Of a stretch of 64,000 bases of DNA, positions 5,359 to 54,900 are shown piece after piece. The DNA comes from Paraspadella gotoi (lineage: Eukaryota; Animalia; Chaetognatha). The stretch's first letter is position 1. Every line of letters begins with the position of its first letter. Location: assembly GCA_051294375.1 (NCBI GenBank), contig CM119263.1:25449367-25513366 (forward strand), written 5' to 3'. The notes under the pieces are model-generated. The model made no database searches. It saw only the letters and a list, made by a program, of their open reading frames with translations, and had not been told where the DNA came from. The translations under genes and the position numbers were made by a program.

Positions 5359-6070
5359 TACAAGGTGACAACAATCCGCCGCTAGAAAAAAATCGTCAGT
5401 TGCAAACCTATAAAGATTTTTTTAATCTGAAAAATTTTTTTTATAATTAAAACCAAAAACAGCTGCTTTAAAAATCGTCTTTCATTTTACAACATATAAT
5501 AATTGTTTTAAATTTATTTTAGTTACTATTTTTATGTTTGAGGTAAAAAATGAATTGTTTGTTTACGTATTAGTTTTATAAAGAAATAAATTTTGGATAT
5601 GTTTCAGCTTCAATGTAAGCTTTCATCAGTGAAAAAACAAATATTTTTACTGACTCTTCAAACTTCAAAGTCTGTAAAAATTTTTTTGTCATAAATTAAT
5701 TTGTTTTTGGCGCTGATTTTTTTTTTTTTTAGATTCGATCCAGATATATTTTAAAAATTTCAGTCCAAGACTTTTCATATTTTCCATACATTTAATAGAT
5801 TTATAAAAAAAAATCTTTCCATATAACTTAAATGAAATTGGTACAACCAATATAAATATTATTATTAAATTATTATTATTATTAAATATTATTGTCATAC
5901 GGTTAAAACCACGAGGGAGTTAATGGTTTACATTGAAGCCGCAAAATATCTGAAATTTATGTTTCCGAATAAAATTTATTGTACGTAAACAAACGAAGAA
6001 AAAAAATTATAATTTTTTGTTATGTTTTTAAACTTTTTTTTATCGGCGGGTTGTTGTGCGTCACCTTGTA
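5359..6070. mobile_element. Degenerate Tc1/mariner-like MITE containing an inserted palindromic repeat
   Basis: Imperfect terminal inverted repeats TACAAGGTGACAACAATCCGCCG ... CGGCGGGTTGTTGTGCGTCACCTTGTA with TA at both ends; the left end recurs inverted at ~44335-44406. Confidence 0.65.
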
Positions 6071-6599: not shown

Positions 6600-8114
6600 T
6601 TAAAATAGTTCTTCGATTGGCGAAGGTAGATTTCTTTTCTCGGTGAACTCGTCGACGGCGAATGAATCCCCTCCGAATTCTTCGTCCACGTTTTCACCGC
6701 CCCCACGACTTGAGAGACGCGCAGAGTCGTCCATGTTCGCCTGATCGTTCCCTAACTCAACTTCTCCGCCTTGGGTCACCTCCATGTCCCCCTTGCATTC
6801 TCTACTCTCTGTCACTTGATAACGTTCCCGCCACAGGGGTCCACGGCTGACGAGTTTTTGACGACGAAATTCTTTTTTCTTTACGTTTTCTAATCGTTTG
6901 TCATCACCGAAAATTGAGTCGCGTTGATCCTTGGTCACCATTGAGTCTTGTTTCATCAACTGCAAGTAGACACCTCCAGGGGTGCGACGACGTTTGTTGT
7001 CTGCCGTCATCATTCCGCCATTTTTTTCTACTTCTTCCGTTTCGCACAACTTGTTCAAAGCAAACTTTTTTCCCATGGTCTCAACCACTTTGATGATGAG
7101 ATGCTTTTTTTGTTCTCTTAACCGATTCTGAATGACTTCCACGACTCTATCGTCGTCGTCTTCGACTTCGCAGGTCATCGAAGGGTCAAACTCTTTGGGA
7201 CCGATTCTGTCCTTGATGTTGACACCATGCTTCTTACGACGTCGTCCCTCGTCATCATAAGCGCGTTTTCGGCTGAGGCCGCGACGTCCGTCACCCTCCT
7301 CCATGTCCACACCGTTGGCCTCATTGTCGGCACCTTCAGGGGTCCTTTCTGAGGTCTCATCTTCGTCCTCGTCCTGGCGAGGCTTCAGACCCTCCGCTTC
7401 CAGAATCTTTTGGAACGGATCGTTAACATTTTGCCGAACCTCGAACAATTCGTCTTGAGAACGAGTCTCGGCGACCGGCGTCTCGAAATCTCTAGTGTCT
7501 TCCTGCGCCTTTTCAAAATTGTAGTTTTCAACGCCTCTGTCATGGAAGACTCCCTCATCCTTTTCGAACAATGCAATGCTCTGCTTCATCCCTTGTTCCA
7601 ACACCTGATCTTGCATGACGGAGCCCCAAATGTTGTTCTTTCGTCTTTTCATTTTAGGACTGTTGCTCGGAGTGTTTCCAGGAATCCTGATGTCGTGCGA
7701 ACTACGCGACGGTGATTGAAGAATATTTTTTACGGTTTCTTTGCATTCTTTGCTTCTCTTTACTTCCGAATTTCGCCTTTCTTGGACTTTTTGATGCTGC
7801 CAAGCCTCAAGAAATCTTTGCGGATGCTCGTCTTGCGGCTGAGCGCAGGACTTAGTTTTTTTTCTCTTCCAGGACAGCACATCGTCTTCGTCGATATCAG
7901 ACTCGGAGTTGGACTCTTCATCGGATGACATCAAAAACTTGTCGGGAGCCCGAGGGTTTAGCTTCGATGATTGCAGAGATGTCGGTGGTTGTCGATATTG
8001 AAGTGCGGGTTTTTCCGGCAGAGGACCACCGGCGGTTTTAGTGTAAAGTTCTGACGACCGTTCGTTTCCGTCGTCTGAATCACAACTAATTTCGCCTTCT
8101 TCGACGTCTCCCAT
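6600..8114 (-). CDS. PHAX: Phosphorylated adaptor for RNA export (PHAX), single exon, 504 aa
   Basis: Uninterrupted ORF with NNIWGSVMQDQ, RGVENYNF and the PHAX RNA-binding domain motif TEEVEKNGGMMTADNKRRRTPGGVYLQLMK; acidic Ser-rich N-terminus (EEGEIS, SSDEESNSESD). Confidence 0.92.
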   Translation of the reverse strand: MGDVEEGEISCDSDDGNERSSELYTKTAGGPLPEKPALQYRQPPTSLQSSKLNPRAPDKFLMSSDEESNSESDIDEDDVLSWKRKKTKSCAQPQDEHPQRFLEAWQHQKVQERRNSEVKRSKECKETVKNILQSPSRSSHDIRIPGNTPSNSPKMKRRKNNIWGSVMQDQVLEQGMKQSIALFEKDEGVFHDRGVENYNFEKAQEDTRDFETPVAETRSQDELFEVRQNVNDPFQKILEAEGLKPRQDEDEDETSERTPEGADNEANGVDMEEGDGRRGLSRKRAYDDEGRRRKKHGVNIKDRIGPKEFDPSMTCEVEDDDDRVVEVIQNRLREQKKHLIIKVVETMGKKFALNKLCETEEVEKNGGMMTADNKRRRTPGGVYLQLMKQDSMVTKDQRDSIFGDDKRLENVKKKEFRRQKLVSRGPLWRERYQVTESRECKGDMEVTQGGEVELGNDQANMDDSARLSSRGGGENVDEEFGGDSFAVDEFTEKRNLPSPIEELF

Positions 8115-8286
8115 ACTTTTTATTCATTAAAAAACTAAAAAAATTACGAAATAGTACATGAAAACTTGAAACAAATTTAATAAACATACGTGCTTTTAGA
8201 CATGTCAATTGCGGGTAACTTTAGGTACCAGCGGTCGGTGCTTTGTTAATCCATTTAATTTTGTTTTCCCTCTAGCGTCGAGTATT

Positions 8287-17500: not shown

Positions 17501-20500
17501 CCAAGGAGGCCTCAAGCAGCGTCTTAGAAGGTGAGAAAGCTGATTCTCGTCGATATAACCGTCGCCGTCTACGCATGGAATCCGGAAAAAACTCGGAACC
17601 CTCGCGAGGGATGATGCCTTGGAAACGCAGTGCGGAATCCAACAGCGCAGTTCGTAAAGTGGACAAGTCTGTCGACGACGATAATGACGACGATGACGAC
17701 GACGACGTTCGTGTTCGCGAAAAGAAGTTAAAAAAGTCCAAGTCCGACGCTAAATTAGCGAGCAAACCGAGCAGCGATGCTGAATCGGATTCGAAAAACG
17801 ATGAGTCTCCGCCGTCGATGCGTCATCCCGACATCGCGAAAGGTGGCGTACGGAAAAGATTTTTGGCCCGGGCCGCAGCCGCAGCCGCAGCCGCAGCCGC
17901 GATTTCAACGGAACCATCCGATTTTGTTGGGGAGTCCTCTCTGGCTCTCGCCGAATCCCCTCCTAACACTACAGACGGGGCTCAAGAGGCCAATCTCGTT
18001 GTGTCCGATCCAGTCAATGAAGCTTCGGAGAAAATAGAAACGAGAGCGGTTGAGTCATCCAAGGGAGGACGTGACGACGAGGAACAAGAGGGTAAACGGA
18101 CCGCGGACGAGCAGGAGGAAACTACGACTGAGGAGTCCACGTTCGAAGTGGACGTCGAAACGAACGACGTTGATACTCATCCGGAAGTGGAAAGTAATTT
18201 GATGACGGGGACATCCCAAGCCCAAACGACTCCCTCGGATTTCTATTCAGACATCATTGAATCCTCCGCGATGCACGAATCTTCTGAGGCCTCGCCTTTG
18301 TCCACTTTGGCACAAATCGCTTGCGACTCCAAACCCATAACTCCCCCCTCGGCCTCTTCTTGCTCGACATTTACCGCGTCGACGCCCAACACGCAGACTC
18401 CGGCGGTTCGGCACTCTCAGCCAAATACTTATCCCTTAGCGATTGGTGTCGCGGAGCAAGCCTCAACTTCTTCGCAGGATACAAAGCCGTTCGTCACATC
18501 GGTTTCCCGTATTATAGAAAGGGTCATCAACACTAGTTTTCCCGAAAAAAGCGATGGTGAGACCCCGGATGAAGTTAAGCGAGAGCCAGTGAAAAACGAA
18601 CCTGTGAAAGAAGAGGCTCCGATCACGATTTTTCGTGATCCGGAACTTTTGAAGAAGGATCCCTTCACTCAACGCGAGCGAGCTCTGTTGGAAGCGTCTA
18701 AAACTGCTGGACGGGATAGAGTCGGATTCTCCGACGAACGACCAAGCGGATCGTTTCAGCCGGCGTTGCCACATCAGCCTGTGGGTCAACTTCCTGTTCC
18801 GGTTGATCGTCCAACTCACCGTCTGGTGATGAACTTGATTCCCGAATCTCATCAAAGATTTGCGGAAGTGGTTGCTCAGCAACAGCAGCAGCAAAGAGCT
18901 GTCGAGGCCGCGTTGCTACAGTCGCAGCAACAACAAAAGGCCATGGAGGCTGCCATTCTTCACTCGCACATGCTTCAGGTAACTTTAAACTTCGCAATAT
19001 GTTTTTGATGTAAATGTATAAATGTCATCGTTTTTAGGCCCAAGCTCTGGCAGTGGCTTCATCCCATCTCTTACCAGTAGCGTCGGGGATCACACCTTCA
19101 GGGATTTTGTCAACTGGTGTTCCGGCGGCCACCGCATTTCCTAATTTACTTGCTCCGGTGGTGATCAATTCAAGTGGCAACCCCCCACCTGGTCCCACCG
19201 AAAGCGGTGTACGTGATATTGCATCTGCCAAAGCAGATGTAAAAACCGCCGGGTGAGGTTATATTTTTTTTTCATTATTCACAGATTGACGTGTTTTTTA
19301 TTTTATTTTATTTATTTTTATTTACTACCTAGCCCCACACGATCGGATGCAGAGGAGGCTGCCATGAGAGAACAGCGCCTCATTTTGCAAAGTTTAGAGC
19401 AAGAGCGAATCAAACAACTCGAGGCGGAACAAAAGATTAAGGCGGAGAAGGATAGACTGGCGATGATTGACGACAGCAAGGGTCACCGGTGAGATAAGTT
19501 TTCTTTGAAAATTGTTTGAACTTTTTTTCTTTTTGTTAAACAATCTTAACAATCCTCATAGCGAAAAACTTGATATAAATTCTTTTAAGGAAGCTCTTTT
19601 CATAGCATTTTGGGTATAGACTGAAACTGAAAGCCAAGATCAAGCAGATTCAAAAAAAGTTTTTGTATTATTGTATTATTACTAAGGACACGAATAATTT
19701 AATTACAACAACAACAATCTTTATTAGACGAACATGTTTCGGCTTACAGTTTGATCCTTCATCAGCGTCAAAGTTTTAGACAGATTCTGGTCACAAAAAA
19801 TGGGTACCTCTTTTTATATTATAAAGTCTTCTGTACTTTTAAAGATCGGCTCTTTTATATTATAAATTATTTATTGATGAAGTTTTACATAACATTGCCA
19901 TAGTAGCAAACGTGAAACTATGCTCTTGTGTTTTTATAGAATGCCCTCCGACACTCAAGGAAATCCACGGGTTAACGTTGAAAAGATGAAAAAAGAGCGA
20001 GAAGAAAAGGCAATGGAAATGCGCTCCGAGCAGGTGATTTGTTAAATCTTAATCTTTGAACTTTATTTCCAACTAATACGTTTATGAAATTTGTACAACC
20101 AATATAAATATTATCCATTCATTTAATAAATAAGCTATTTTTCCCCCGACTTTGGACAGGCTTTGGTGGTTTAAGGCCTCCATCACTCTTACAAGATAAT
20201 GACATAGCAGGTCCCTGCAAGCTTTCAATCAAGACTCTCTCACAGTCTTGTTTATTCACTCCCAAAGTACTTGGCTTCCCTATTTATTTAATTATGAAGA
20301 CAAAATTACGAATTTCGTTTTATAATAAAGATGGTGCGATTTTGATGTGACATAATGTTGCAATTTGTTTTCGGCACCGTCAAAGCCTATGATTGCCTCG
20401 GAGAATAATTACTACGTATAACCTGTATTTTTATTTCTTCATTAACCAAAATTGAATTTTAAAATATATGTCTACTATGTCTACTATTGTCTAGTATAGA

Positions 20501-23500
20501 ATCAATAAAATTATTTCGTTCTGACAGGAGATTCGCGAACGAGCGGAAAGACGAGCGGTATTACTGGAGTCGGCTGAGGCCGCTGCTGCAGTACAGGAGC
20601 ATTTCAATCAATCGCTGCTTCTGGCTGAACAGAAGGTAAGAATACTATATAGAATTCTCCATAAATTTTTGACCGTTTTCTCGTCTTATGCGGTTTTGAT
20701 ACTGCACAGTAAAAATTCTGAATATTAGTTTTCTTATATAATTATATTCTTTCTTTCCTTTCTTTCTTTCCATTCTTTCCCATCAAAGCGCGCCGCCTTG
20801 AAAACCGGTGATGCAGGGATCGCACCTTCTTGGCCCCGCGTTTCTCCTACGTCGTCGCACGTACCCGATCGAAAGTCCTTCGAGTCAAAGTCTCCGCGCT
20901 CTCTTCGCTCTCCGTCCATTAATCCACCTCAGTTCACGTCGCCCCGTCATCCTCATCTGTCCCCGCAACAGCTTGCCCTGCCTCACCCCTATAATTCTCA
21001 GATTTCACCGCACCATCTTCAGTCTCCGCCACTGCCACAACCCTCCCCTCCACAATCATATGCTAGTCACTCGCACGCCTCTTCGCCTCAGTCCGGATCA
21101 AAACTGTCTTCCTCTCTTCCTCAAAATCAATCGGTCGGCCGAACTATCAACTGTGCAGCTGTTCCGGCTCTGTCTCCGCCCATCCCTCAATACCAATTTC
21201 CGAAACAAATAACGTCGCCATCGTCCATCAGTCCTCGTCTCCCGACGCCCCATCTACTTCTTCCTTCGACTTCAATCGGTCGTCCGCAATATTCTGGGGT
21301 CGAAGACCGCCTGCCTGGAGCGACGGTCGGAGAGAGGAAGAAAACTGAGGCCACGGTGGTACATCATTCGCATCAGTTGCTTGAAGTTTGTAAAAGAAAA
21401 GGCGAAACGGCGACTGGCTCCGTCGAAAAAAATGGTGAGAATTAAAGTACATCCAACTCGTTTTGAGCGACTCGAGTTTATTATATTACATAATCTCAAA
21501 TTTCACGGGTATGACACAATTTTTATCTTTTACTTTCATTTGTTTTAAGAGCATTTGTTTTAAGAGCATTTTGGAAATTTTTCATGTCTTGGCAATGGCG
21601 GCGAGGTTGGCGAACTCTTCCTCGATAAGCTCATCCCGATGGAGCGTGACTCCAAAACTTTTAACATGTATGCGCCGCTGAATCATGAGTCGATGGATGT
21701 ACTTGAGTGCGATTCCTTTCGACATGTTGCCCTCCATCATAAATATGTCTGTTATCTCCTGTCGTGTTAAAGGGTAACAAAATTCGATGAAAGGCTGTAT
21801 ATTTTACACTTGGTTTATCTCTTTCTCTGTCACTCACACACACATTTCACTTTATAAATACAATTTGAACGTCTCTCTCAAACCTGCATCGACTTGGTGA
21901 TAACCTTTCTATCACCACATAGATACAAATGACCGCTTTTCATCATAAGATCTTGGTATATATGCCTAGCATCTGCTTTCAGGAGATCCTTTAAATCAAG
22001 AATTTGTGACCTTTGTTAGATTATTGGTGAAAGAAAGAGATAAAGAGAAAAAAAAGAAAAATAAAAGAATGAATCATCACCTGAACGTATGTCCTCTTCA
22101 TATTCCTTTCCCGCGAATAAGCAAATTTGCCTATAATATGGTTTTTGTCAATCACTGTCTCAATCTCGTCATCGAACATGATCTCCCCGCGGTCTCGGCT
22201 TCTACAACCCATATAAAGGACGAGTTTTCCCCAACTCCCCCACATGGTGTCCTCTTCCGGCGCTCTCGGTGAGAGCTGACGCAATTTTATGCGTTCGTTC
22301 CAAAAGCTCCTAGGAAACGAAGTGGCGGCGTCGGGGCCAAGCATTTTCTTTATGATTATGAGACTCTGCGGCTCCATCTCGCTTTCAAAATATTTTTTAG
22401 CCTGATCTGCTTACAGCTGATTCCGAGTTCAGAATTCAATTTGTCGGTCACACCCCAAAATCTTATCGGTAATTTAAATCATGTTAAAATATCGAATAAT
22501 AATAAATTATACAAGTAATTCATGTTTTTCTGTCTTTCTTTTTAATTAAATGTAAAATAGATATGTCGCTCCGCGCTTAAAAAAAAATCCGAAAGAACGA
22601 AGTGGTTTCTGATAATTTTGCTTCCTTGCTTTTTTTGCACCAGAAGCGCAGTAATAATATTACAAAACCACGGATGATTTCTGAAACTGCAGTGTTTGGG
22701 CTATCCAACGACTAAAAAATTCGGTGCTTAGTCTGATTTCCTTTTGAATTTTTTATCGTCGCAATCACTGAGCGTTTGCGACGATATTGTAACGCTTTTG
22801 CGCATAAGTGGTGTCGTCGTCGCGTTCCAAATTATATGATTAAATTTGGGTGTATGAAGCTGAAGATTTATATACAGCTTCTCATCATCGATGTGCTTAA
22901 AATTGAGTCTGGACAGTTATTAAATATGTTTTGTTTACTTTTTATCAAAACAAACAAATTTTCTCTCTTTTATTTTCATATTTCTTTCTCTCTCTCTTTT
23001 CTCTTTTAATTACATGTCTCTCTCCCTCTTTCTTTTCCCTAGTCACTGATTCATAATCATAGGAAACAAAACCGAGTCTGCAGCTGGCTCTGCAGTGGCT
23101 TATTCTTTTTCTTTCTTTTCTCCTGCTGCTTCTGCCTTTTGATTTCTTTTTTTCTTCTGCTGCCGCTGCTGATTCGTCTGAAAACGATTTGGCTTCTTTC
23201 TCTCTCTCTGATTAAATTTTTTCCTTTAAAAATAGGGGAAAAAACGAGTCTGCAGCTGGCTCTGCAATGGCTCTTTCTTTTTCTCTCTTTTCTCCTGCTG
23301 CTTCTGCTGCTGCCTTTTGATTTCTTTTTTTTCACTCTCTCTCTCTCTCTCTCTCTGCGTTTTTATTTAAAAAAAAATTGAATTAGGATTGAACTCGTAA
23401 AATTAGGCATCGCATTCGTGCATGTTATCATTTTGCTATTTTTCAGAAAGTGTAACTTTAATTTTCTTCCGTACTTTATTATTTTTTTTATTAACAATCG

Positions 23501-26500
23501 CAAAATAGAATTTTTCTTTATTTATAATTTAATTTTCTTTTTTCAAATTTTATTTTTTTTAGTATCAAAATTTGTCGTCAATCCAGATTTTTCTTATGCT
23601 ATTGCGACGATCCTTATGCTTTTAAGATTTTTTTATTTTGGGGTATTTACTGTATAAGTCAAATAAATATACAGCAGTCATGCACTGGTTCCGATTCTGT
23701 TGGGTTTAGCCTATCTTTCAAGCACATAACGAAAAAAAGAAATAATAGCAATTAATCCAAATTTTGTTCTCAAAGTTTATCATCATTTTTGTTTCTTACT
23801 GTTTTTGCCAAACATGCCCTTTAAAATTATAAAAATATAGATTAGCTAATGAAACTACAATGTCTTAGGTACATTTCGTTGCCCGAACAAAGAAAATTCA
23901 TTGATATCATAGTCTCAATATGGAGCCTTGCAATACCTCGTTTTCTTCGTAATTTACCCCTTTATTGATAAAGGCCTTGTATTATAATAAAAAATAAAAC
24001 AACAATTTAACCATACGGCTACATGCATTAGCGTGTTATTGAAAGATTGTAGTGATTTTTTTAATAAAAATTATTTATATTGATATATCTAATGGACAAA
24101 ATGCAAAGGTTTTAATTTGCACCTGAGGATGACCACAATTTAAAAATCTGATAATAAAGTCTTTTAGCCCTATGTCAGTAATTTTTAAATCAGGGGGAAC
24201 AAAGTTTGAACTCCTAAATTTTCATATTTAAATCATATGTTTTTAAGGTTGCTACTTTTTATTACCAATTAAGTCACTCAGCCGAAGCTAAAAATTTAGT
24301 GGAACCAAAAAGAAAATTTAACGAACGCAGATTTGTTTTAAAAATTGGGTGTGAAAAATGACCATTTTTTTGTAAATTATTTTTCAATGCATGAATCGAT
24401 TGATTTGAAATGTTGGATCAACAATATTGACATCATTTCCTATCAGTAAATGTAAAAATATGTAAAATAACATTATAAACGACCAGGTAACTTGCCTATC
24501 TATGTAAAGGCATTATGGGTTAATTTTCTTTTCGCCGACCGGGCTTAGGGTTAAGGGTTAGGGTTAAAGATAATTTAGGGTAATTGCGTAATAATTTTTA
24601 TTATTTTTTTTTAAAAAAGAAGTATATTTAAGTAGTTTTTCAAAAGACCCCGGTAGGCGAAAGTGAAATTTTTGCTAATTATCTGATCAGCTGCTTACCG
24701 TTAATGATCTTGGGCTGATCCGGCATTGTTTGCGCAAACTTGTTCATTTTATGCCATCAAAATGAGTAAGCGAGGGGACCGAGGTGTTTGTTGAAGACAT
24801 GATATTCTGATGATTGTTAATTATGCGTATCACCTAAAAGGCGCTATGCTGACGCCAGCACCAATCATCAATACTGGAATGGAAGCATCCGATGGAAGAT
24901 GAAAACTTTCTTGAGGCTGGATGAATGCATAGACGAAGCAGTTCGCCGTATGGGATGCCATCCAGCTCGAACAAACACTGTAGGCGCCCTCCCGGTTTCC
25001 CTCTTTTAAAAATATGATTTAAGTCTTCACAAACTTGTTAATATTATTTAATAATTGAAAGCGAGTGTTTTTTAAATTTAAAGGTGTTACCTCTTTCTTT
25101 AAACACGTTAGTAACAATTCTGACTTTGTTCTCGTACGGTGACGACGCGATGGTATACAAACGCGGCATCAACGGTGGGAATCGTTGAAGAAGCGTTTTG
25201 TAGTCGATGTATAGGTGAGTGAATGTTAGCAGTAGTTCCGCCAGGGTAACTGCTTTTCTAAAACACCATCGGGCGTAGGTTTGTGCATCCTAAAAATCAT
25301 GCAAGATGTACTCAGGACTTGAGGAAAAAACAACCTAAAAATCGCGTCATACTGTGGCAAGCGCGTTCAGCAGTTTTTTCTCCCGCAAGTCCGTAGTCGT
25401 GCTGACAAATTCTGCCAAAATTTCTTGCGACGGGGGAGATGTTATGTCCAGAAAAAAGGTCAACGCTTCTCTCAGCGTTACGCGGGGAGGAATGTGTGAT
25501 GGCCACACCCAAAATTTCTTTGTACCTAAGTTCTTAAGTTCTTAATTAAAAAAATCATTTTTTTAGTTAATCCTTATGTCAAACATTATGAAACCCACCA
25601 TACGAAGTGTCTATAGATTTTCTCTTGCTGAGAACTATGACTTCGTTTCTATCTGGTGCCCCTTTCATGAGTCTCGAAAGGATCAAGTTTACAGATAAAG
25701 GATGATTCTGTGGAAATATTCCGAGATCGTCTCCTGGTCGAAAATCCGGTACCTTTCCGGCGACTGTGACAAAATCCGTTAGCAGCCGCTTATGACTACG
25801 GAATCGATTAGATTTATAGTTAAGAATTATTATGAAGAATTACGAACATCGTGCGAAATTTTTGTTCACCTAAAATCTTCACAGTAAATAATTTCATTTT
25901 TGATGATCCGAAGAGGCATAACTTCTTGTCGATGAATCTTTCCCAAATCGGCACAAAGATCCTCAGCAGTCTTACCTACATAAAATTAAATAATTTATTT
26001 ACTCTATATATATATGATATATTTCTTATGGGCACTCTCATTCTCTATCAGTATTCATCTAATGTTACTTAGTTTTTGTCCTCGTTCAACGACAAACTTC
26101 CATGAGCTGTTATCTTGTGTTTTAGCGATGGATAGCGGAAAATCGACAATGTCTGAGTGCCCAAAAATTTTGACCAAAACCTTTTATGGAAAAATAAATT
26201 GATTCCCTGCCGTGTCTGTCATCAAAAAATTAAAATATCCTACCGCCACAGTCGCCTTTAACCATTTTAAAAATTCTGCGTTTTGACCCGTAACTTCATT
26301 GGCCTCCGTCAGAGGAATTATACTTTGAGCACCGCCAGATTCCAAAATGGTGGAGAGATGTCGTGCCGTCGCCCCAAAATCTGGGCTTGCACTTGTGTCT
26401 AACGCCAAGCAAGCAAATCTGGAAAAAGGAAACATTGTAAGATTTATTTTCCTTTTCGGCAATGCCAGTGGAGATAACTCAGAATCCCTTCACCCAAGAG

Positions 26501-29500
26501 ACATAAATTGTGGCTCATTTTGTAGCCCGCCATCTGGCATTTCTGTTGATATCAATTTTTACATAATTCTACTTCTTTGTACTTTGTACTTCTTTGGTAT
26601 TAAGTTCTCTGCTGCAATGAAGTCTTCGAATTTGTCAATCAACGATTACCTTAAACTCCTAAGCTTCTGACTCCTGACTACTTCAAAGTTATAAATCCAA
26701 TCAAAGTTGGATGGAGCCTCTGCGATTAGGAGGACAACGTCCTCGAATTCCATATCACTTGGATTGTATTGAGGCGCGTAAACCAACTAATTATAAATTA
26801 CTTAATTACATTAACCAAAATTATTTGAAAAGTAAATCAGGATAATAACTACTTGTGTTTTAAAATACTCTTGTAACGAATACTTGACAAGTGTAGCATA
26901 ATGTTGGCTGACACCATGCAGGCGCGTGTATATTATAGTGACGCTATTAAAGCGACGTCGTGTGATGTGTCCAATCATGCGAACAAAAAAACGTATGCAT
27001 AGAGATATTGACTTCAGGTGGCCGTGATGACGCCAATTAAGTAATAGACGACGTTGCTCATTGGCCTTGAGTCGAAATTTGCTCCACACGTACTTTCGCT
27101 CCACCTCCTCTTTTAAAAGAAAAAAAATGGCTTGAACTAGTATCTATAAATTTAGATTAAATTATTAATATAAAATTAAAATAATAGCTTAAAATTTTGA
27201 CCGACTATATCGAGCAATTAATAACGTTACCTAAAACTTTAAAGCTCGGTTGGTAATTTTCATCTGGAGCAAATTTTGCGTAATCTTTTTCACTTAAACA
27301 TCCTTGTATGGCTTCACCGGCTGTGGTTTTTAAATCCAAATATATTTGCTTGTTTTTTGCCTTCGTTTGCTCATCGACGAATTTTTCTAGCATGATCGCT
27401 GCTTTTTCATCCGTCAATACAAAAGTACCTTCCAACTGAGAGTCGAAAGTAGTATGTGACATTACAAACAATTCGAAGTAAGTGTACCTGGAAACTGAAA
27501 AGGACGGCTTCTTGTAAAGTTTCTATAGCCGATTTCCTCCAATGACTTGGAGGAGCAGTGACATCTAGCTCCATTAGTTTTCCGACCTCTGCCGAATAAT
27601 TATACCTAAAGGTTCAAAAATGTTGATACGTCGTGTACGCTTAACTGCCGCAACCCATCTAATTATAAATATAATTGATTATTCTAACCGGGACTCTTCG
27701 TTAAAGGGACCCCGTGCTAGTGATGACGCCAAGTGAATTCCATTGAATGGAGCTGCACTGTATTGAATGCCACCAATCGTTATGCCAATATTCGAAGTTG
27801 TTGGCAGAGCAAACCAACGCAGATTTAATGTCTCCATTTGGTACCTAGTATTAAACACCACGAAAAAAGCTGTAAAATCATAAAGTTTTCAAGTTGTTTT
27901 ACGATTTTACAGTTTCAGATTGTTTCAGCCTCTTCCTGAAATACTATTTTTCCCTCTATTTCCTCACTCCTTTGTTACCCCTTTAATAGACGTTTCATGG
28001 ACCCTTACTAGTCTTAATGCTGACTCCAGTAGCCTGATTAACTTTAGGAAGATTAAAAACTAAACATTTATTTTTATTATGTTCTAAGAACCTGATTTTT
28101 CCCCAAAAGCTTACTTAGGATGTCGGAGAGCAATTATTTTTATAAGTTTTGATGGTATTTCAAACATTTGTGGATCATTGTAATCTAATTGAATAAGCAG
28201 TGGGAGAACATCCCAATTGGTATATTTTGATTTCCATCCTAACTTTCTGCATAATTTAGTAAGGTAGACCGTACAAGGATCCCCAGTAATGGTGCCGTTT
28301 AAAGTTTTATAACCAGCAAACTGTATTAATTTTTTATTCCAGATTCTGTATTGTTGTCCATTGGGCCCAGTAGGACGAAAAATGGTTATAGCCGATCGTA
28401 TTTTTCCATTGTTCGTGGCTAATATTTTTAAAGAGTTATGTAAACTAATCAAAGAAAAGTCTGCTATTTCATTCAGTTATTGATATAATATAAGTTTTGA
28501 TTGAAAGCTTGCAGGGACCTGCTATGTCATTATCTTGTAAGATAGCTTATTTATTAAATGAATGGATAATTTTTATATTGGTTGTACCAATTTCATAATA
28601 TAATTAAAGTGGTCCCAATTTAAAATGTTTTTGCTTTTAAGTTTAACTTAAAGTACCATATTTTATGTGGTTGCAACAAGCCCTAAATATGCTGTGGCAG
28701 TCATTTAAGTGCCGACAATCAAATATTTGAAGAGATCGGCCCACATAACGACCAAGACACGTGGCTGCATTTTTGAAGGCGTCTTTAACTCCAAATATTA
28801 ACTCTTCTCTGGTATGATCATATGTATTGTTTTGAGCTATACTAACGAGTACCTATGATTAAAAAAAGATAAAATTGTACATTCACTGCTTATGAGCATA
28901 AACGTAAAAAATATTACCGCAACCACCTTTAACCCCTAACCCTAAATCTCCTTAACCATAACCAAACCTTACCAGTTTTTGATATTACCAAAAAAAGTAA
29001 TGATATATACTATTATATAGTATTTCATACTCCGCTCCTGCCAACCCAAAGGACTCGGGTTCGCGCCCTACTGATCACAAGTAAAAGCGGGACGGGGCGT
29101 TTAACCCACCTGTAGTGGCGGACTACAGGCGATCCGAAGTTCGGGACCTTGTGTTCAACGGACGGTGAACTGATCGCGGAATCGTCTTCCACATTATGCG
29201 AATAAAAATATAACGACTGGTACAGTTCCAGTCGGCGAAAGAAAAATGGTGCCAAAAAGAACATGGTTTTGTTGGCAACAAGTAATGCCTAATAAATTTA
29301 TCACCTGGTGTAAACGTTGACGGTGTAGATCTGTACCAAATAGGCCTCGATGCTCAAAATATTTTTCTAAGAATAATTGAGCTTCTTTCATCATGGAAGG
29401 TCTAAAATATTACATTCTCTTACTATTGTGTTTCGACTCCAATTTCATTGCGTTTCGTATGTTGTGAAAACAAAGTTTTATTTTTTACAAACAACTACAG

Positions 29501-32500
29501 TTGTAAAAGCAGCAGGACCAGACAACCGCCCGCCTCACCGTTAGCTTTGTCTTAAATTTTCTCTTTCTTTTCCCTCTCTATGTACATATCTCGAACTATT
29601 TTACTATTTCGTTTTTTTGAAAAACTTTTACTTTTACAACATTGATAAATTAAAAATATTGTTTCTAAATAATGTCCCCTCTTTCCCAACTGACCATATT
29701 TCATTTCCCTTCACTCTCCTTCAATCTCTTCTGACCTTACCTTCAGCCATTTGCCATTAGTCGAAACATGTCCGCTATAATATCAATGAAAAATCCTATT
29801 TTGTTGTTTAATATGACTGATTAAAGAATAAAATAAAATTTGTTTTAAAAAAAGTTATTTATTCATATTTATCAAATATGGATGGATTTAAATGGATGGA
29901 TAATTTTTAGATTGGTTGTACCAATTTCATATAATAGTGAAATAAAATGAAAATAGTATCAGAGCATTGTTTACTATTCTTTTCATCTTATTTTTTGAAT
30001 ACTGTTTGCTAAAAATACATGCTGTTTATTTTTAAAAAAATATATTTTATATATTTTATTTTGACGGTTTTCCTTTCGTTTCGTTGGTAAAGAATTTAAA
30101 ATAAGATATATTTTATATATATTTTATATAGATTTTTGTTAATTGGAGGTATTATTGCTGTTACCACATACAAAATTTTAATATAATCCATCCATCCAAT
30201 CTCGAGTAACTAGAGATTAAAGCAAAAAGGGGATAGGTGGACATATGGAAAGACTAACAGACAGATAACAATTTTTTTTATAATTTAATATTTTTTAAAT
30301 GATTCAAGTGATTGATTGACCAACCCAAAAAGCAAATAAAAGGGATGATCGAGTTGATTGTGCTTATTGAGATTAATGGTTAATTCTCATTGAGAATAAT
30401 GGTTTTGTATAAAAAATTAAAATATCAAAAAAATTAAAAAAATTTGCCTTTTTCAAAATCGAAAGGCTAGAGGCTGATTTTTTTAGAATTGCAAAATTGT
30501 TTTCTTAACTCGAAATCCATTATTCTAAAGTTTCAAAATATTTTTTTTCCAAAATCATTGAATAATTTTTTTTTATTAATTTAAAATGTTTTTTATAATG
30601 TTGTTTTTGTTTGAAAGAATTGGAAAAAAGGGAAAACAGTAATTATGTAAGGTTTTTAAAAATACTTAAAATATTAAATAATTAGACATAAGGGGAGTAA
30701 GCAGAAATAAATTCCTATTAAAAAAAAATTAAAATGAATTTGTTGTTATTCAGATTAATTGACTAATTATAAGCTAATGAAGTAATGATTCATATAAATT
30801 GAGGAAATGTTGGGTTAAAAAATATTCATCTTGGTCTCGGTTAATAATTAAGTTATTGTTAGTTTTGTTTTAATAATATTAATTATTTTTACATTTATAA
30901 AAACAAGTCGGAAATTTTATAAGCGTTTTGAGCTATATTGTTTCATCTTTTTTCCCCATTTTTGATCTCGTTAGCTTTTTTGTTGATGGTCAAGAGTTAT
31001 GGTCAGATACAGTAATATGCACATCGCACATATTACCAAAAGTAACAATCAATTAATTTGGTTTAGAAACCATTTTAAAGAGACAAAATCAGCACGAGAC
31101 CATTTCGCCACGTTATTTTTCATTGTGTCTTATAAAAAAATCGCTGTTTGTAACAAATAAAACTTTTTCTCTTACTAAAAATTTTAACTAATAGTATCGT
31201 GGTTCAAAACTCACGTATTGACATTGTTTTGATTGAAGCCCATATTGAATCTTTCACATTTTGGCGAGTTCGAATTTAAATTATCAGGAATAACGGCGAA
31301 TTCGAGAAGATCAGTAATAGGAGCAGGAGTGCGGACGAATTTTTCAGTAACCTCCGATTCCGAATCTTGAATTTCTTTTTCTTTGCTGGTCTTTCTTTGA
31401 TTAATAATTTTTTCTTTATCGGGTGCTTTCACGGCTTTTGTTGCGAATGTTGGTGGGTTGTTCATTTTATCTAAAGAATTGTGGACGCAACAAGTTGTGG
31501 ACGCAACAACTTGTTGCGTCCACAGAATACATATTTTTTCATCAATCACTTTTTGAGCGAAATTTTGTTTCATATAAAAACTAGAATTCTAAAAGTTTTT
31601 AGTTCTACCAGTCGCTTGTGAAGCTCTTTTGGGTTCTTTAACCATTTCTTGCCCCTTATAGAGTGTTTCGTAATATTTAGGAATTGTTGAGGGATCAACT
31701 CCAATAGAGGGTCGCGGCGATGATCGTGTTTTTGCAACCGGTAACTCTTTAGTTGATAATTGATTGTTTGTTGGCTCTTCTTCACAATTTGTTTCACTTT
31801 TTTCTAACAAGAAAATTAATTTATGCTAGGTTAAATTCTGTGTGTTATTATTATTATTAGTTATTACTTTTTGGTAGCACTGGTGGGACTTTTTTTTTCT
31901 CAATGTATGGTGTGCTGTTATCATCTTCTTGCCAGTGATTTATATTTGTTTCTTCGGTCTTCTTTTTGGGCATAGTGATCAATTAAAACTGTAATTAAAC
32001 ATTAAATTTCTAAATGAATTTTCAAGGATAACGGCGAAACAATTGTAAATCTTAAAAATAATTATCTTATTATCATTATCAGCGATTCAGCGCGGAAAAA
32101 AGATTATTAAAAAGATGAGGAATGATAAATTTTGAATAAATAATATTAACCTAGGCATGATTTACTTACTTTTGAGGCTTTGATTATACCGACTTACGAG
32201 TTGTACTGTTTTTGAACTAATCGTTTTAACTGCCACTTAAAAACAAAAACTAAAAAAAACATAAATAAACATATCTATTTTCTTTAAGCCGGATTTGTAA
32301 GCGGAGATTCTTTTTTCTATCGCGCAGGTTTGACTAAAGAAGGGCATCTCATCGAAGACCTTCGCCTTCTCAGACGGAGCGGCAATGAAACTTCTCCATA
32401 TGTTGTGTCGGACAAAACTCCTTCAATGTTTTTGCGCCATTCCCAGTCTAGCAACGGAGTTTCGTCCAACGTTGGCAATCCGCCTCCCTCGTTTCACAGG

Positions 32501-45909: not shown

Positions 45910-48900
45910 ATGGCGTCTGCCTCGGATTCTCCGCTGTTGAACGGAGTCCCAACCGAGGAGGAGTCGCCCAATGGGCAAACGGATAACAACTCCCAAGCCG
46001 CTTCCAAATCTTCGTCTTCTCGCTTTAAAGTGGCCCCCGTATCTGTTGGTAAGTTCATTCTGTTTGTTACTAAGCAATTTCATACATATGCTTTGATTAA
46101 CATTTTGTGTTTTCCGACGCTATCAAATAAAATCAGGTTTAGATGGGTCCCCGACAGAAGGTGACATTTCTTTAAATGGGGTCTTTCTCTTGTATAGACT
46201 TAATGCATATTTTAACGACTCCATAATTGTTTTGGGTTTTTGTTTTTTTGGTAGGACCTTTAAAAGCTTGAAATGCTTTTGTTGAATCACCAATTTTTTA
46301 GGCTGAATTTAATTAAAACGACGATTTTAACTTGCTTTCACTGCAAGCTTGTTTAATTGGTTTTCAATAAATATTGCATGGTTATTTTAATTTCTGGTTT
46401 TTCTTGGTTACAAACGGGGCTTTATTTGATGTAGTTCTGATATTTTTTGGAACTCGACTAGAGAAGACTGCCTTTTTTGGGCCGTCCGTCCGTCTGTCCA
46501 TATTTTATTTTTGTATCATGATATTTAGTTTTACCTATTTTATTATCTTTTCGCTTAAAAGTTGTTAAAAGTTGTTAAAAGTTTCGCGACATGTTTTAAA
46601 CAGATAATTTGGATATCGGTATTTTAATTTAAATTTCTTTTTATTAACAATTGATTAAAAATATTTATAACCTAATAACTCTAATAGAATATAAAATTGG
46701 TAAAACCAATATATTATTTTCTGAGTACCTGATAAAAAGTTCATGTACAGTAAGCGTAACTAAAATTAATCGAATTTATTTAACATTCATTGGAAAAGTT
46801 ATTAAAACCCATTTGTATGCTTAATTAGGAAAAGGAAATAAAGATGAAGATATTGAATCTATCGAGCACTTGCCCGAGGAAGGAGTTCAGGACGCACGAC
46901 CGACGAAGGTGAGTTTTCCTAAACGTTTCAAATTTATACTAACTTTTTTTTATTATTACCTATGTATATTTTTTGTAATTTAAGATCCTTTTATTTTAAG
47001 GTCGGTTTTCTTACGACGCTTCCTGAGAATGGGGAGGAGAAATTTGCGGATGGCAGCGTTGAAACATCAGAGCCGACCGTCGGCGTCAAATTCGCCGCCA
47101 CGCGATCTGACAACAATCCGACAATCACGTCGCAGCATTCCAAAATCTCGGACACGATTGGCCCTTATGATTCCATTTACCAGACGCAAAAGACTTACGG
47201 GTAAGTTTGTTGTTATGCAGTAGTGCGCGTTTCATCTTTTCTATCCTTTTTTTTTTTTTTTTTTTTGCTAAGAGCTCACATGACTGAGGCTTTTCCGCAC
47301 GTGGGTCATTATCGGAATCTGCTCTCGGCCACAGCAGATCCGAATCTCAAACCTCGACCAACTCTCCAAGAACTTCACGGCAATAAGGTTCGTGAATTCT
47401 GTCCTAAATTATTTGACGAATATTCACCAATATCCTTTTTTTTCCCCTTTATTTATATTTTCCCTTTCTCGGTAATTAATACGTGGGAGTAATCAATTGC
47501 AAATTATTTACGTACAAAATACGATTAGCTCAGTTTTTCTTCATTTCCACACAAAAAAAATTCCGTGTGCTCTAAACAGGGTAATGAATTGTATAATGGT
47601 ATGAAAATATTATTTTGAAAATGTAATTGTGATTCTGTTTTTAAAATTAAATTTTGTTTTTAATATTTATAATTATATTTTATACATAATTTAATACTCC
47701 GATTTAAATTACTCTGTAGATCTTTTTATTTTTTCTCTAAGCAAAATTCAGTGATACTTACCTATCTTAAGCCTCAGGGTAATGACCCTGCCCTATAAAG
47801 ATAAGAGTGCCAAATGAAATTTGATTACGTAATTTTTTTTCGCTTCCAGCAGAGCAACGGAAAGATCCAAAGCGATCTAATATTCTCTTGTAGACTTGGT
47901 TACGAAAAATGTGAAAGAGGTTTTTCTATTCACTTTAGGAAGCTGGCATTGACGCAAGAGAGGCGGCCATGGAAATGCAAGAAGCAAACGGGGTTCTGAC
48001 GTCTGAAAACCCCGATCCTGAAGCTGGCGCCGTTCAAGAAGTCCAAAAATTTGGCTGGATCGTCGGGGTTTTGGTGTGTTGCGTGTTTTTATTCACGAGA
48101 ATAAAAATGTATTTCTCCCCTAGCGCACTTCGAACGTTTCAAATCAACGCTCTTCTCCCGCATACACTTTCTCTATCAAAAATCCTTATTTTTCCTTGCC
48201 TTTTCCTTCTTTACCCCTTCGACACTTCTGTTCCAAATCGTTTCTCATTTTTCCCGATTTTTGCTCACTTTTGCGATGTTTTATTTATAAGACTGCTTCT
48301 CCCCGCTCCCTCCCCCTCCCGAACAGATCCGATGCTTGTTAAACATTTGGGGAGTGATGTTGTTCCTCCGGTTGTCTTGGGTCGTGGGCGAAGCCGGGAT
48401 CGGGCTGGCCTCGGTGGTCGTTCTCTTGGCGGCTGTCGTCACCACGGTCAGTGAATCTTCGTCGTCGTCACTGACGTCAATGACTCTATGCTTTTTTTTT
48501 ATTTAGTGAAAGCGATGAATATTTTGGCAGAAAAAGAATGAAAGAGAGAGGAAAAGAATGAAAGAGAGGAAAAGATAGAAAGAGAGAGGAAAAGATAGAA
48601 AGAGAGAGGAAAAGATAGAAAGAGAGAGGAAAAGATAGAAAGAGAGAGGAAGAGACAGAAAGAGAGAGGATAAAAGTGAGAGATGATGACCCCCCAGGCT
48701 CATTAATTTTCCATCGTGACACTGTGTCCATATTCGGACCAAAATGACGATTTTTTAATTCTTTTTCACTTTAGCTGACAACGATAAGCATGAGCGCCAT
48801 CTCGACGAATGGCGTCGTTAAAGGCGGAGGAGCTTATTTCATGATTTCTAGGTAGTGGGTTGAGGAATTCAAAGTTGTGAAGCTTTACTTTCGTTAAAAG

Positions 48901-51900: not shown

Positions 51901-54900
51901 TTTTTACCTTTACAAATTGTAGGAGAATTAAATTGATGAAAAGGAGAAGATTTCATGATGTGATCATCGAACCAGTCGGCGACTTCTTGATTGACATCTA
52001 TATCCACGCAAAATTGCTTTTTCGCTTGCAAAGCTTCTCGAGCTTTTCGGATACTGAAAAAATATTGTTAAGTTTGTAATTTTAGAATTAATTTAAATTT
52101 ACATACTATGCAAAACATATTTTTGTAGAAAATTCTAAACTGAATTATAAATCAGGAAACCTATTATTGAGCTCTCGTCGAACGTTCGCGTCATTGGTGT
52201 CCAGCAAGACGGCGAAATCTTCCCTGACTTTATTATCCACCCCCGCGTAAGAGTTCCGGCTTCGAGCTCGCCTCGCTGAGGCCAAAGCAACGTCTTTTAT
52301 GGACATGCGTCTGTTGAGTTAATGGAAAGTCGTTATGAAAAAACATCCAGGCTTTTAGGCAAATAAGAACCAAAATCTTAGTTTATTTCTTTTTACTGAG
52401 ACAAGTAATTTAACGATGTTTTTTATTCAGTCGTTAATCTTACGGCCTACTCCAATTTCTTCAAATTGTTGATTTAATTAGATATATTGAATGTAGAAAA
52501 AATTAATATCATTTCGGCGTTTACCCAATGATTAAGCCTCTTTTGTCCCTTCGGTACAAAGCAAACCTGTTGCCTACTTCATCCTCTCGCTCAATACCTT
52601 TAGTAAATAGGAATCTTACAGGATAATTATATATTATTTTATTTTGGTTGTACCAATTTCATATCAAAATAAAAGATTTAAATTTGTTACGTATAATAGA
52701 TTAGAATTCAAGTGTTAACCTTTAGTTTTTGATTGAAACTTGCTCTAATGTACTAATATAGATCAAACGGAAGTAAATTTACATGACATGCAATGACAGC
52801 AGTACGATTTCACTTGGGTTTAAAATGTTTATAATGTTAAAAGAAACCATTTCACTGCGCTCTCTCCTCCTGTGGCGCGAGTTCAACGAGGAGCAAATAA
52901 ACACGAGAAAAAACGAAGCTCAAGGTCGAAGGGCAAACTTCGTGTTAGAAATTTAGTACCAAAATGGCAAAAGGACTTACCTGGAAAGACCCATATCTCT
53001 TACAATGACGGCTCTTAACAATAAGGGACGCTTTAACAGTTTTTCTCTGGTTTGTTCCAATTCCTGGAATAATTTTTTTTATTTATATTTTTATTTCATT
53101 TTTGTAAGTATTTGATATTGTCTTACTGATGTTGTAAAAGTTCTGAGGACTCTCTTGTTGGCGTCTATATCCGAAAAGTCGTTTGTGCTCTTGACGAACA
53201 TGGCGGAATTTGGTTCAATGCTACTACTTTGTCCTTCACTTGTAGTTTCTGTTTCACGTCTTGATCCAAATTCTAAATTAAAAGGTTCCAAGTTTGTAAG
53301 TCCGTTCCTTTACATATATTTAATCGGTTAATTCGTTGAAATTTTAATTTTTACTAGCACAATATTATTGTCAATAACAAAGAAATATTTAATGACGAAA
53401 ATCTTCCTTAATTATATTATAATATTAATAGCAAATAGCAAATCAAGCTGCTTTTACTAATAAAAGATTACTTTTATCAGACGTGATTCCAAAGATTTAC
53501 CAATTTTTTTAAATTTATGGATATCAATAAATAAAAACTAAGTAATTAATTTTGATATACGAGAATACATTTACCGGATTTACTGATATATATCCCGATA
53601 AATTTACATTATTATATTTGATATTATTACATTTAACATTCTTAGTTGAACAACAATTTTTTAATTTTTTTTTTATTATCATTTCCTATTAAATTCATAT
53701 AATACGTGTCAAAAACAAAAATACCTTTTGGATCTGACGTGCTGCTTAGTCGCCTCATAACTAATGATATTACTTCCGGGTGTCGATGGAAATCTTTCCA
53801 TGGAATTATTGTGAGCGGCGGCATTCGCCTGTTTTTTTTTTTTTTTTTGTTTTTATTGTTCAGTCGAGTTTTTTTGGCGTCGATGAATTTTACTGAGAAT
53901 GCGAGAACTAGGCTGGGGTTATTATAGATTTAAATTTTAGTTTCCGAGCGGCATAAAAATTCTAAAAACTTGATTAGCTTATAATGAGTTTAGCTGAGAG
54001 CGAACAATGCGCGAGACACGCGATGCTTCAACGTATCGACCGTGATAACAAAAAGAAATAAAGGAAAAGAAGAAAATAAAAAAGGAGTTGGAGAATATAA
54101 AGCTTCTATTTGAAAATTTCGACCAATGAATATAAACCGACAAAAAAATTGTGAAAAACGTTTTGGTGGTTGTGGGGGAAAACGCTGTTAGTTGAAACCC
54201 TATCGAAGTTGAATAGAGAGCTAGCTCCTAACCACGACGTAAGAGCGCCTTTAAAAGCGACGAAGACGTGGCGCGTAAAACTCGCGAGAAGCGCGCGCAT
54301 CGCCATCGCGAGCGTGACTGTGAATTATTAAAGGGGGTAAAAATTAACGAAATGTACGATTAATGGCGTTTTTCTTTACGCATCTACCAATTACATTTTT
54401 TAAGCTGTTGGATTATCTAAGTCACTATTTTTTTTATGATTTTGGTACCACCAATATAATTATTATTTTATTCAAAAAACTATCCAGTCCCTGACCCTAT
54501 ACAGGCTGTGGGACAAGGCCTCTTCATTTTATATGATAATACAACTTATATGCGATATATATTTAGTTTATAAAAAATCACGGGAAGTGAAAGGTTTTTT
54601 ATGACTCTTTCAGATACTGAAAGGTCTACATAATTAAATATTTTTTCGCCTTTACCATCAATTTTATTTGACAATTGTTTTGTTCGGCTTCCAATGCTTT
54701 CAATATTTAATTTATTTGCAGTGGCTGTCATTAATTGGAGCCATCCTGTGCCTCGTCGTTATGTTTATTATCAATTGGTGGACTGCATTGTTAACATTTG
54801 CCATTATATTTGCAATTTGGCTATATGTGCGGCAGCGGAAACCAAATATAAATTGGGGGAGTTCTACGCAAGCTCATGTTTTCAAGTAAACTAAGTTAAT

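Follow-up and report, generated by a model that had tools for sequence, protein, structure and literature searches.

A constrained NOS-like gene in a chaetognath with a rebuilt arginine pocket and replaced cofactor and electron-relay residues

The 64,000-nucleotide stretch of Paraspadella gotoi DNA analysed here (hereafter, the window) carries an intact, spliced and constrained descendant of nitric oxide synthase (NOS) in which the residues for substrate, cofactor and electron relay are replaced. Given that the determinants for arginine, pterin, zinc and the FMN relay are lost, the encoded protein very probably makes no NO from arginine. We tentatively favour, at somewhat less than an even chance, a conserved pseudo-NOS acting as a non-catalytic heme-thiolate sensor of a ligand or gas, or as a regulator.

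Gene architecture and transcript evidence

The NOS-like gene occupies the minus strand at about 32.0-21.6 kb of the window and displays the full animal NOS architecture. The model, built by tblastn and splice-site reading, consists of 19 exons with GT-AG boundaries at 18 out of 18 introns and 1156 codons without a stop, or 1250 codons with two further inferred 5' exons. Both in this genomic model and in the full-length relative P0275, a single chain contains the oxygenase domain, a calmodulin helix, and the FMN, FAD and NADPH domains; in the domain test of this single-chain architecture, flavodoxin scored 24.9 against a cutoff of 25. Pfam matches to the NO_synthase oxygenase domain fall on four exons of the window gene, and P0275 matches it with an E value of 5e-103. 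Three of the exons, e3-e5, make up precisely the interval 27689-28852 in which a previous sequence-only reading had located an altered pocket (e3 starts at 28852 and e5 ends at 27689). A tblastn search found no second, canonical copy of the pocket exon within the window. The features of the gene are as follows.

31215-31973, minus: inferred exons n1 (31973-31868), n2 (31803-31643) and n3 (31588-31215), with GT-AG boundaries, fitting phase and open frame; low-complexity N-terminal extension and a zinc-region remnant (one Cys, no CxxxxC)
29305-29401, minus: exon e2, first oxygenase helices (tblastn; e2/e3 joint in RNA)
28657-28852, minus: exon e3, with Cys194 (28759-28757) and Gly196 retained and the substitutions Trp188Phe and Arg193Thr (alignment; spliced in RNA)
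28115-28418, minus: exon e4, best-preserved oxygenase core, with the substitution Gln257Lys (28332-28330) (alignment; spliced in RNA)
27689-27844, minus: exon e5, containing the rebuilt pocket helix; substitutions Val346Thr, Trp366Ile, Tyr367His, Glu371Ser (27723-27721) and Arg375Gly, with Pro at 376; Pro344, Phe363 and Gly365 retained (alignment, relatives; spliced in RNA)
27488-27605, minus: exon e6, post-pocket oxygenase helices (Pfam NO_synthase, E 4e-6; RNA)
27231-27435, minus: exon e7, at the place of the region for pterin binding and the dimer lariat; without a Pfam match and without the pterin tryptophan motif (RNA)
26853-27109, minus: exon e8, linker, calmodulin-type helix and rebuilt FMN phosphate loop (in-frame form matches P0275 and P0099)
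26069-26786, minus: exons e9-e11 (26786-26650, 26418-26244, 26180-26069), degenerate flavodoxin (FMN) domain without autoinhibitory insert (joints e8/e9, e9/e10 and e10/e11 in RNA)
24834-25975, minus: exons e12-e16 (25975-25870, 25795-25599, 25525-25353, 25289-25091, 25002-24834), connecting and FAD domain, beginning of NADPH domain (tblastn with P0275)
21582-22309, minus: exons e17-e19 (22309-22081, 21988-21884, 21758-21582), NADPH domain and stop codon; Phe1395 kept, Asp1393 to Lys (model and tblastn with P0275, no RNA contig)

Transcript evidence comes from one of three public runs, X1 (a single sample), X2 and X3 having yielded no matching contigs; none of the runs is recorded as RNA, and the X1 contigs are read as such because they skip GT-AG introns; they served to establish splicing, and their depth was not taken as a measure of expression level. 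Nine introns between e2 and e11, including those among e3, e4 and e5, are spliced out, with zero mismatches in the listed exon pieces (four per contig). Eight of the nine RNA-covered joints agree with the gene model, and the summed length of e5-e16 (2002) fits a 2003-nt contig. Upstream of e2, the RNA contig has 699 unplaced letters, compared with 641 modelled as n1-n3.

The e7/e8 joint differs from the model. Here, the sole RNA contig skips 123 nt rather than 121, splicing into the second of two tandem AG acceptors (27107-27111, minus strand), where a start at 27109 keeps the frame and a start at 27107 is the one observed. The latter form runs into a stop at 27060-27058, just past the oxygenase domain, with a separate 634-codon reductase frame beginning at 26978. 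No other X1 contig adds depth in the two bins at this joint, but variants can be missing from contigs, and an allele lacking 2 nt in the sampled animal would be indistinguishable from the shifted joint. P0275 and P0099 read in frame through this point, and the fragment P0273 departs from the coding sequence exactly there, suggesting that it contains the same intron. Because two relatives read through and P0273 breaks at the same position, we regard the in-frame form as the family state; the truncated form would therefore be an isoform or allele of the window species.

The surrounding sequence is animal DNA with short introns and a GC content of 28-45% per 2 kb. A KDM3/JMJD1-type demethylase gene extends over 10295-42884 on the plus strand, with DUF7030 and Tudor_KDM3B exons at 10.3-15.8 kb, a zinc finger at 38.7 kb and JmjC at 42.6-42.9 kb. 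As its exons flank the NOS-like gene on the plus strand, the latter is likely nested antisense in a KDM3 intron. The e3/e4 intron contains a high-copy short repeat (28481-28605; summed X1 contig depth of about 87,000), which has partial copies at 20082-20236, 29888-29931, 5832-5862 and 52637-52663 and is probably a small mobile element. A second repeat family is represented in the e2/e3 intron (29034-29194) by a single copy in the window and by many variant X1 contigs. Elsewhere in the window, a PHAX gene (6600-8123, minus strand; Pfam PF10258) consists of one long open frame, with the nearest relatives being JGI/Logan proteins at 53% and 39% and the named ones at 30-42%, and the open frame 47939-48454 (minus strand) includes a stretch that seems to resemble an exon of a cation-chloride cotransporter (SLC12).

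The arginine pocket is rebuilt around a retained heme cysteine

The oxygenase domain of the window protein is about 35-40% identical to that of animal NOS. Each of exons e3-e5 aligns to the mouse iNOS chain 1noc without gaps (query/chain 5-67/53-115, 2-104/113-215 and 7-50/219-262), consistent with the gap-free pocket segment of the sequence-only reading, and with a chain numbering offset of +114, the window Cys is residue 194 and the Ser residue 371. The central proposal of that reading, namely that pocket residues are changed while Cys194 is kept, was thereby confirmed: the segments it quoted are present, with the Cys codon at 28759-28757 and the Ser codon at 27723-27721, and under proper alignment the Glu371 position is occupied by Ser in the window protein. 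At the substrate positions Glu371, Trp366, Tyr367 and Gln257 the window protein has Ser, Ile, His and Lys, respectively, with Glu retained in the family only by the fragment P0264. Glu371 is described as holding the substrate and Arg375 the pterin (PMC13291759).

As a canonical reference, we used 74 NOS proteins (P0002-P0075), leaving out P0001, a double-oxygenase model. The Trp366, Tyr367, Met368 and Glu371 columns are invariant in all 73 canonical proteins covering them, and Gln257 in 74 out of 74. The positions Trp188, Gln257, Val346, Trp366, Tyr367, Met368, Glu371 and Arg375 are invariant in every covering canonical protein and are all changed in the window, so the changes are not due to chance. 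Among 237 helix-covering non-family proteins (out of 306 fetched; cluster duplicates included, best HSP only), Glu is present in 228 and Ile-His at positions 366-367 in none. Some substitutions listed in the sequence-only reading need qualifying: Tyr341 to Phe is private to this species, every relative covering the site keeping Tyr, and the columns of Arg260 and Asp376, also changed in the window, vary in invertebrates (56 of 74 canonical proteins have Ser and 59 of 73 have Asn, respectively).

Misalignment of the helix was rejected, the alignment to iNOS being ungapped and anchored on both sides, and so was sequencing error as the source of the pocket changes, given that RNA contigs and relatives agree. 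P0175 and its cluster, considered as possible Glu-less proteins, were set aside: the Glu is seemingly displaced by an intron-like insertion, after which canonical residues follow. Other apparent exceptions at the helix, P0114/P0300 and P0212, are fragments.

Four lineages share the new helix

Exon e5, used as the query of a HMMER search against 1.84 billion representatives, yielded 144 matches, among which P0099 is 65% identical over the exon and has the new helix; it is absent from the other 122 of the 144 matches that align across the pocket. The highest-ranking match among the representatives, P0098, was discarded as a repeat protein. P0262, P0263, P0264 and the full-length P0275 were recovered by a profile search (12 matches among 3123 candidates) together with a cluster look-up. 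Together with the window protein, the family comprises four lineages, 45-72% identical pairwise; its relatives come from merc (a marine eukaryote catalogue), JGI/IMG and ENA. P0275 aligns to the window model in a single HSP with 516 of 1077 positions identical (48% overall). A homolog search with exon e4 (lengths 183-2000) returned 75 canonical NOS matches at 44-52% and zero family members, the family helix was found in none of the 21 loci of a metagenome scan, and the ESM Atlas gave no match at 0.9 or above, which is uninformative. Ahead of its oxygenase domain, P0275 also carries an extended N-terminus that includes hydrophobic segments and a Cys-Pro-Phe motif (residues about 38-115 and 573-576); the window model has no such extension, which may be genuine or an assembly chimera.

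The replaced helix is among the segments best conserved with relatives, in support of the earlier view that the pocket was rebuilt rather than decayed. Residues 358-377 of the model are identical to P0275 at 18 of 20 positions, compared with 2 of 20 for the canonical consensus, the largest contrast of any residue window. Derived sites are shared at 18 of 21 positions in the helix region versus 62 of 152 across the remainder of residues 120-415 (Fisher p 1e-4, with the helix window chosen post hoc; binomial about 0.009 after allowing for 18 windows). Common to all four lineages are Thr346, Ile366, His367, Ala373, Gly375, Pro376, Asn378, Glu379 and Glu380, of which Thr346, Ile366, His367, Gly375 and Pro376 form the family signature. 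The 65-residue fragment P0264 has Ile366, His367, Gly375 and Pro376 and retains Glu371, possibly representing an intermediate state, and the loss of Glu371 is therefore not the defining step. Likewise, a non-acidic pocket is not what defines the family, considering P0264 and the Glu379 and Glu380 of all four lineages.

In phylogenetic trees, the family forms one clade (support 100) with a long stem branch (1.39 and 2.69 changes per column in two trees) and appears to belong with or next to animal NOS. A clade of animals plus the family was not rejected (AU 0.70), and in one tree a diatom NOS joins the same unresolved group; when the window protein is the only family member included, the tree saturates (end branch 10).

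That the gene is a decaying pseudogene, or else a working NO synthase with an unusual active site, is highly improbable. The frame-breaking RNA joint could be a null allele in this species, but the genomic frame is open, the RNA is spliced, the same new residues recur in four lineages 45-72% identical and the full-length relative has an open frame, and we reject decay despite that joint. The complete NOS domain order and the Glu371 kept in one lineage would suit a working enzyme, against which stands the joint loss of arginine, pterin and FMN determinants.

Cofactor, dimer and electron-relay sites

The sequence-only reading addressed the arginine pocket alone; the losses of pterin, zinc, FMN and electron-relay determinants come in addition to it. 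The pterin tryptophan motif (Trp457 region), present in 71 of the 74 canonical proteins, is absent in the window protein, P0275 and P0099, and the pterin-site Arg375 is Gly in four lineages. The zinc motif CxxxxC (present in 59 of 62 canonical proteins) is absent from P0275 and from the window model, in which the 5' exon is inferred. Replacement of these dimer determinants (zinc motif, pterin lariat and Arg375 region) by family-specific sequence weighs against a dominant-negative or modulating partner that heterodimerises with canonical NOS, its truncated splice form playing the part of the shortened NOS isoforms of Drosophila. We consider such a role distinctly unlikely, even though the calmodulin-type helix and domain order are kept and the RNA joint gives an oxygenase-only product.

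In the reductase half, three FMN motifs, present in 72, 67 and 69 of the 74 canonical proteins, are absent from both full-length members. Trp366, the human equivalents of which have been proposed as an FMN-to-heme electron relay (PMC6451115), is Ile in all four lineages. The residue pair Ser1176-Asp1393, described for the reductase (PMC9687028), is Thr/Ala and Lys in the full-length members, which keep Phe1395. FAD and NADPH motifs are recognisable variants, with 26 of 46 and 27 of 40 invariant columns kept. Conservation among family members is lowest in the FMN domain (35%, versus 49-61% elsewhere) and highest in the NADPH domain (61%). The FMN phosphate loop is rebuilt and yet conserved inside the family.

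Around the heme, both full-length members keep Cys194, Gly196, Pro344, Phe363 and an aromatic residue at 188 (Phe for Trp), whereas the pterin, Trp457-region and Tyr485 contacts are lost. An AlphaFold2 model of the P0275 oxygenase region (mean pLDDT 84.5; block means 60-80 where the pterin lariat is replaced) matched NOS heme domains with Foldseek TM scores of 0.75-0.82 and an E value of 6.6e-40; as 80 of the 88 alignment rows are canonical, the model leans to the NOS fold and is weak evidence. We predict that the window protein probably still binds heme. Its conversion into a heme-independent structural or scaffold protein, with the new helix serving solely as a protein-protein surface, would accord with the changes at Trp188, Arg193, Tyr485 and the pterin site, which are propionate and proximal heme contacts, but this is very unlikely in light of Cys194, Gly196, Phe363 and Pro344 being kept in both full-length members at 48% overall identity.

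Possible functions of the rebuilt heme domain

A sensor is favoured because the path of electrons from NADPH to heme seems to be broken in three places, namely the FAD catalytic pair, the FMN loops and the relay Trp. In such a protein, heme would be bound via Cys194, between Phe188 and Phe363, and a distal pocket lined by Thr346 and His367 would bind a small ligand (O2, NO, CO or another). The calmodulin-type helix and the FAD/NADP(H) module would act as regulatory inputs instead of an electron chain, and the new helix might also rebuild the dimer contact once held by pterin and zinc; the conserved helix may thus serve the pocket, the dimer surface, or both. Several points speak against this interpretation. 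No output domain or partner has been identified for the window protein, and a new substrate would equally yield a pocket so conserved. FMN binding may be possible, the FMN phosphate loop being conserved in the family, and the FAD and NADPH domains are the best kept (49-61%). Moreover, P0264 keeps Glu371, and the e7/e8 joint of the sole RNA contig would remove the whole reductase half.

The main rival, in our view rather unlikely, is a heme-thiolate enzyme with a new substrate, a monooxygenase or a peroxide-driven enzyme fed by its own altered reductase, an outside reductase or H2O2. Thr346 and His367, common to all four lineages, would then replace the proton delivery given in NOS by arginine and pterin. 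The substrate-facing helix is the greatest departure from NOS and is nevertheless conserved, and the FAD and NADPH motifs and Phe1395 are largely kept. On the other hand, the family has lost the Trp366 relay, the FMN motifs, the pterin site and the Ser-Asp pair, the reductase Cys is missing from P0275 as well, and there is no candidate substrate. The losses at the pterin, zinc, FMN and relay sites therefore favour a non-catalytic or externally driven role over a self-sufficient swapped-substrate enzyme.

NOS can reduce nitrite, and an arginine-free redox role in small-molecule chemistry, such as production of NO from nitrite under low oxygen, NO scavenging or uncoupled superoxide formation, might likewise be envisaged for the family, although we deem it quite improbable. 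The distal His could conceivably protonate nitrite, and superoxide is released by NOS lacking arginine or pterin (PMC6451115); such chemistry requires re-reduction of the heme, for which the FMN shuttle looks broken.

Returning to the non-catalytic sensor or regulator, a broader scenario, which we offer as speculation with odds somewhat below those of the sensor itself, is that a marine animal lineage turned the NOS fold into a different heme protein, its pocket accommodating a gas, nitrite or a new organic substrate, with the tandem acceptor switching between the full-length form and a free heme-domain form.

Comparison with known systems

The family shares its domain order, heme Cys and fold with animal NOS (nNOS, iNOS, eNOS and invertebrate enzymes; PF02898, PF00258, PF00667 and PF00175) but differs from them in that the arginine anchors, pterin site, zinc motif, relay Trp, FMN motifs and Ser-Asp pair are replaced. 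Like the window gene, iNOS has no autoinhibitory insert (PMC7400543). With cytochrome P450 reductase and NDOR1 diflavin reductases, the family has the ancestry of the reductase half in common, whereas its FMN and catalytic residues are degenerate.

Bacterial NOS is oxygenase-only, as would be the stop-containing splice form of the window gene, and lacks the zinc motif while still using arginine. In contrast to the family, the canonical Trp-Tyr-Met...Glu-Ile helix is present in 20 of 21 metagenome loci, L019 being partial. Truncated, dominant-negative NOS isoforms of Drosophila are oxygenase-only products of alternative splicing; these are pieces of a normal NOS with the pocket intact, whereas in the window gene the pocket itself is rebuilt. 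The first oxygenase copy of Bulinus truncatus P0001, a single gene model, independently acquired His367 and Gln371 with the heme Cys kept, and loss of Glu371 is therefore not unique to the family; unlike the family, this copy keeps Trp188, Trp366, Arg375 and part of the pterin motif and does not have the family helix. Rev-erb/E75 and RcoM are heme-thiolate gas sensors and employ Cys-ligated heme in the manner proposed here, with unrelated folds.

A derived NOS in ctenophores and a triplicated NOS in placozoans have been described, and the passages seen of PMC10073611 and PMC7400543 mention no rebuilt pocket; judged by titles and abstract openings, the open-access literature yielded no NOS family without the arginine pocket. 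The family belongs to NOS by structure but, judging by its sequences, would not qualify as an NO synthase by function.

From bacteria to mammals, the NOS active site hardly varies (228 of the 237 fetched proteins covering it have Glu), and NOS-like annotations are taken to mean that the protein makes NO. A constrained family in which substrate, cofactor and relay residues are jointly replaced would represent either a naturally occurring NOS pseudoenzyme or a NOS fold that has taken on a new function, and cautions that a NOS domain match alone is insufficient to infer NO signalling. With P0275 as a natural full-length sequence at hand for expression, the family offers a direct test of the NOS scaffold without arginine and pterin.
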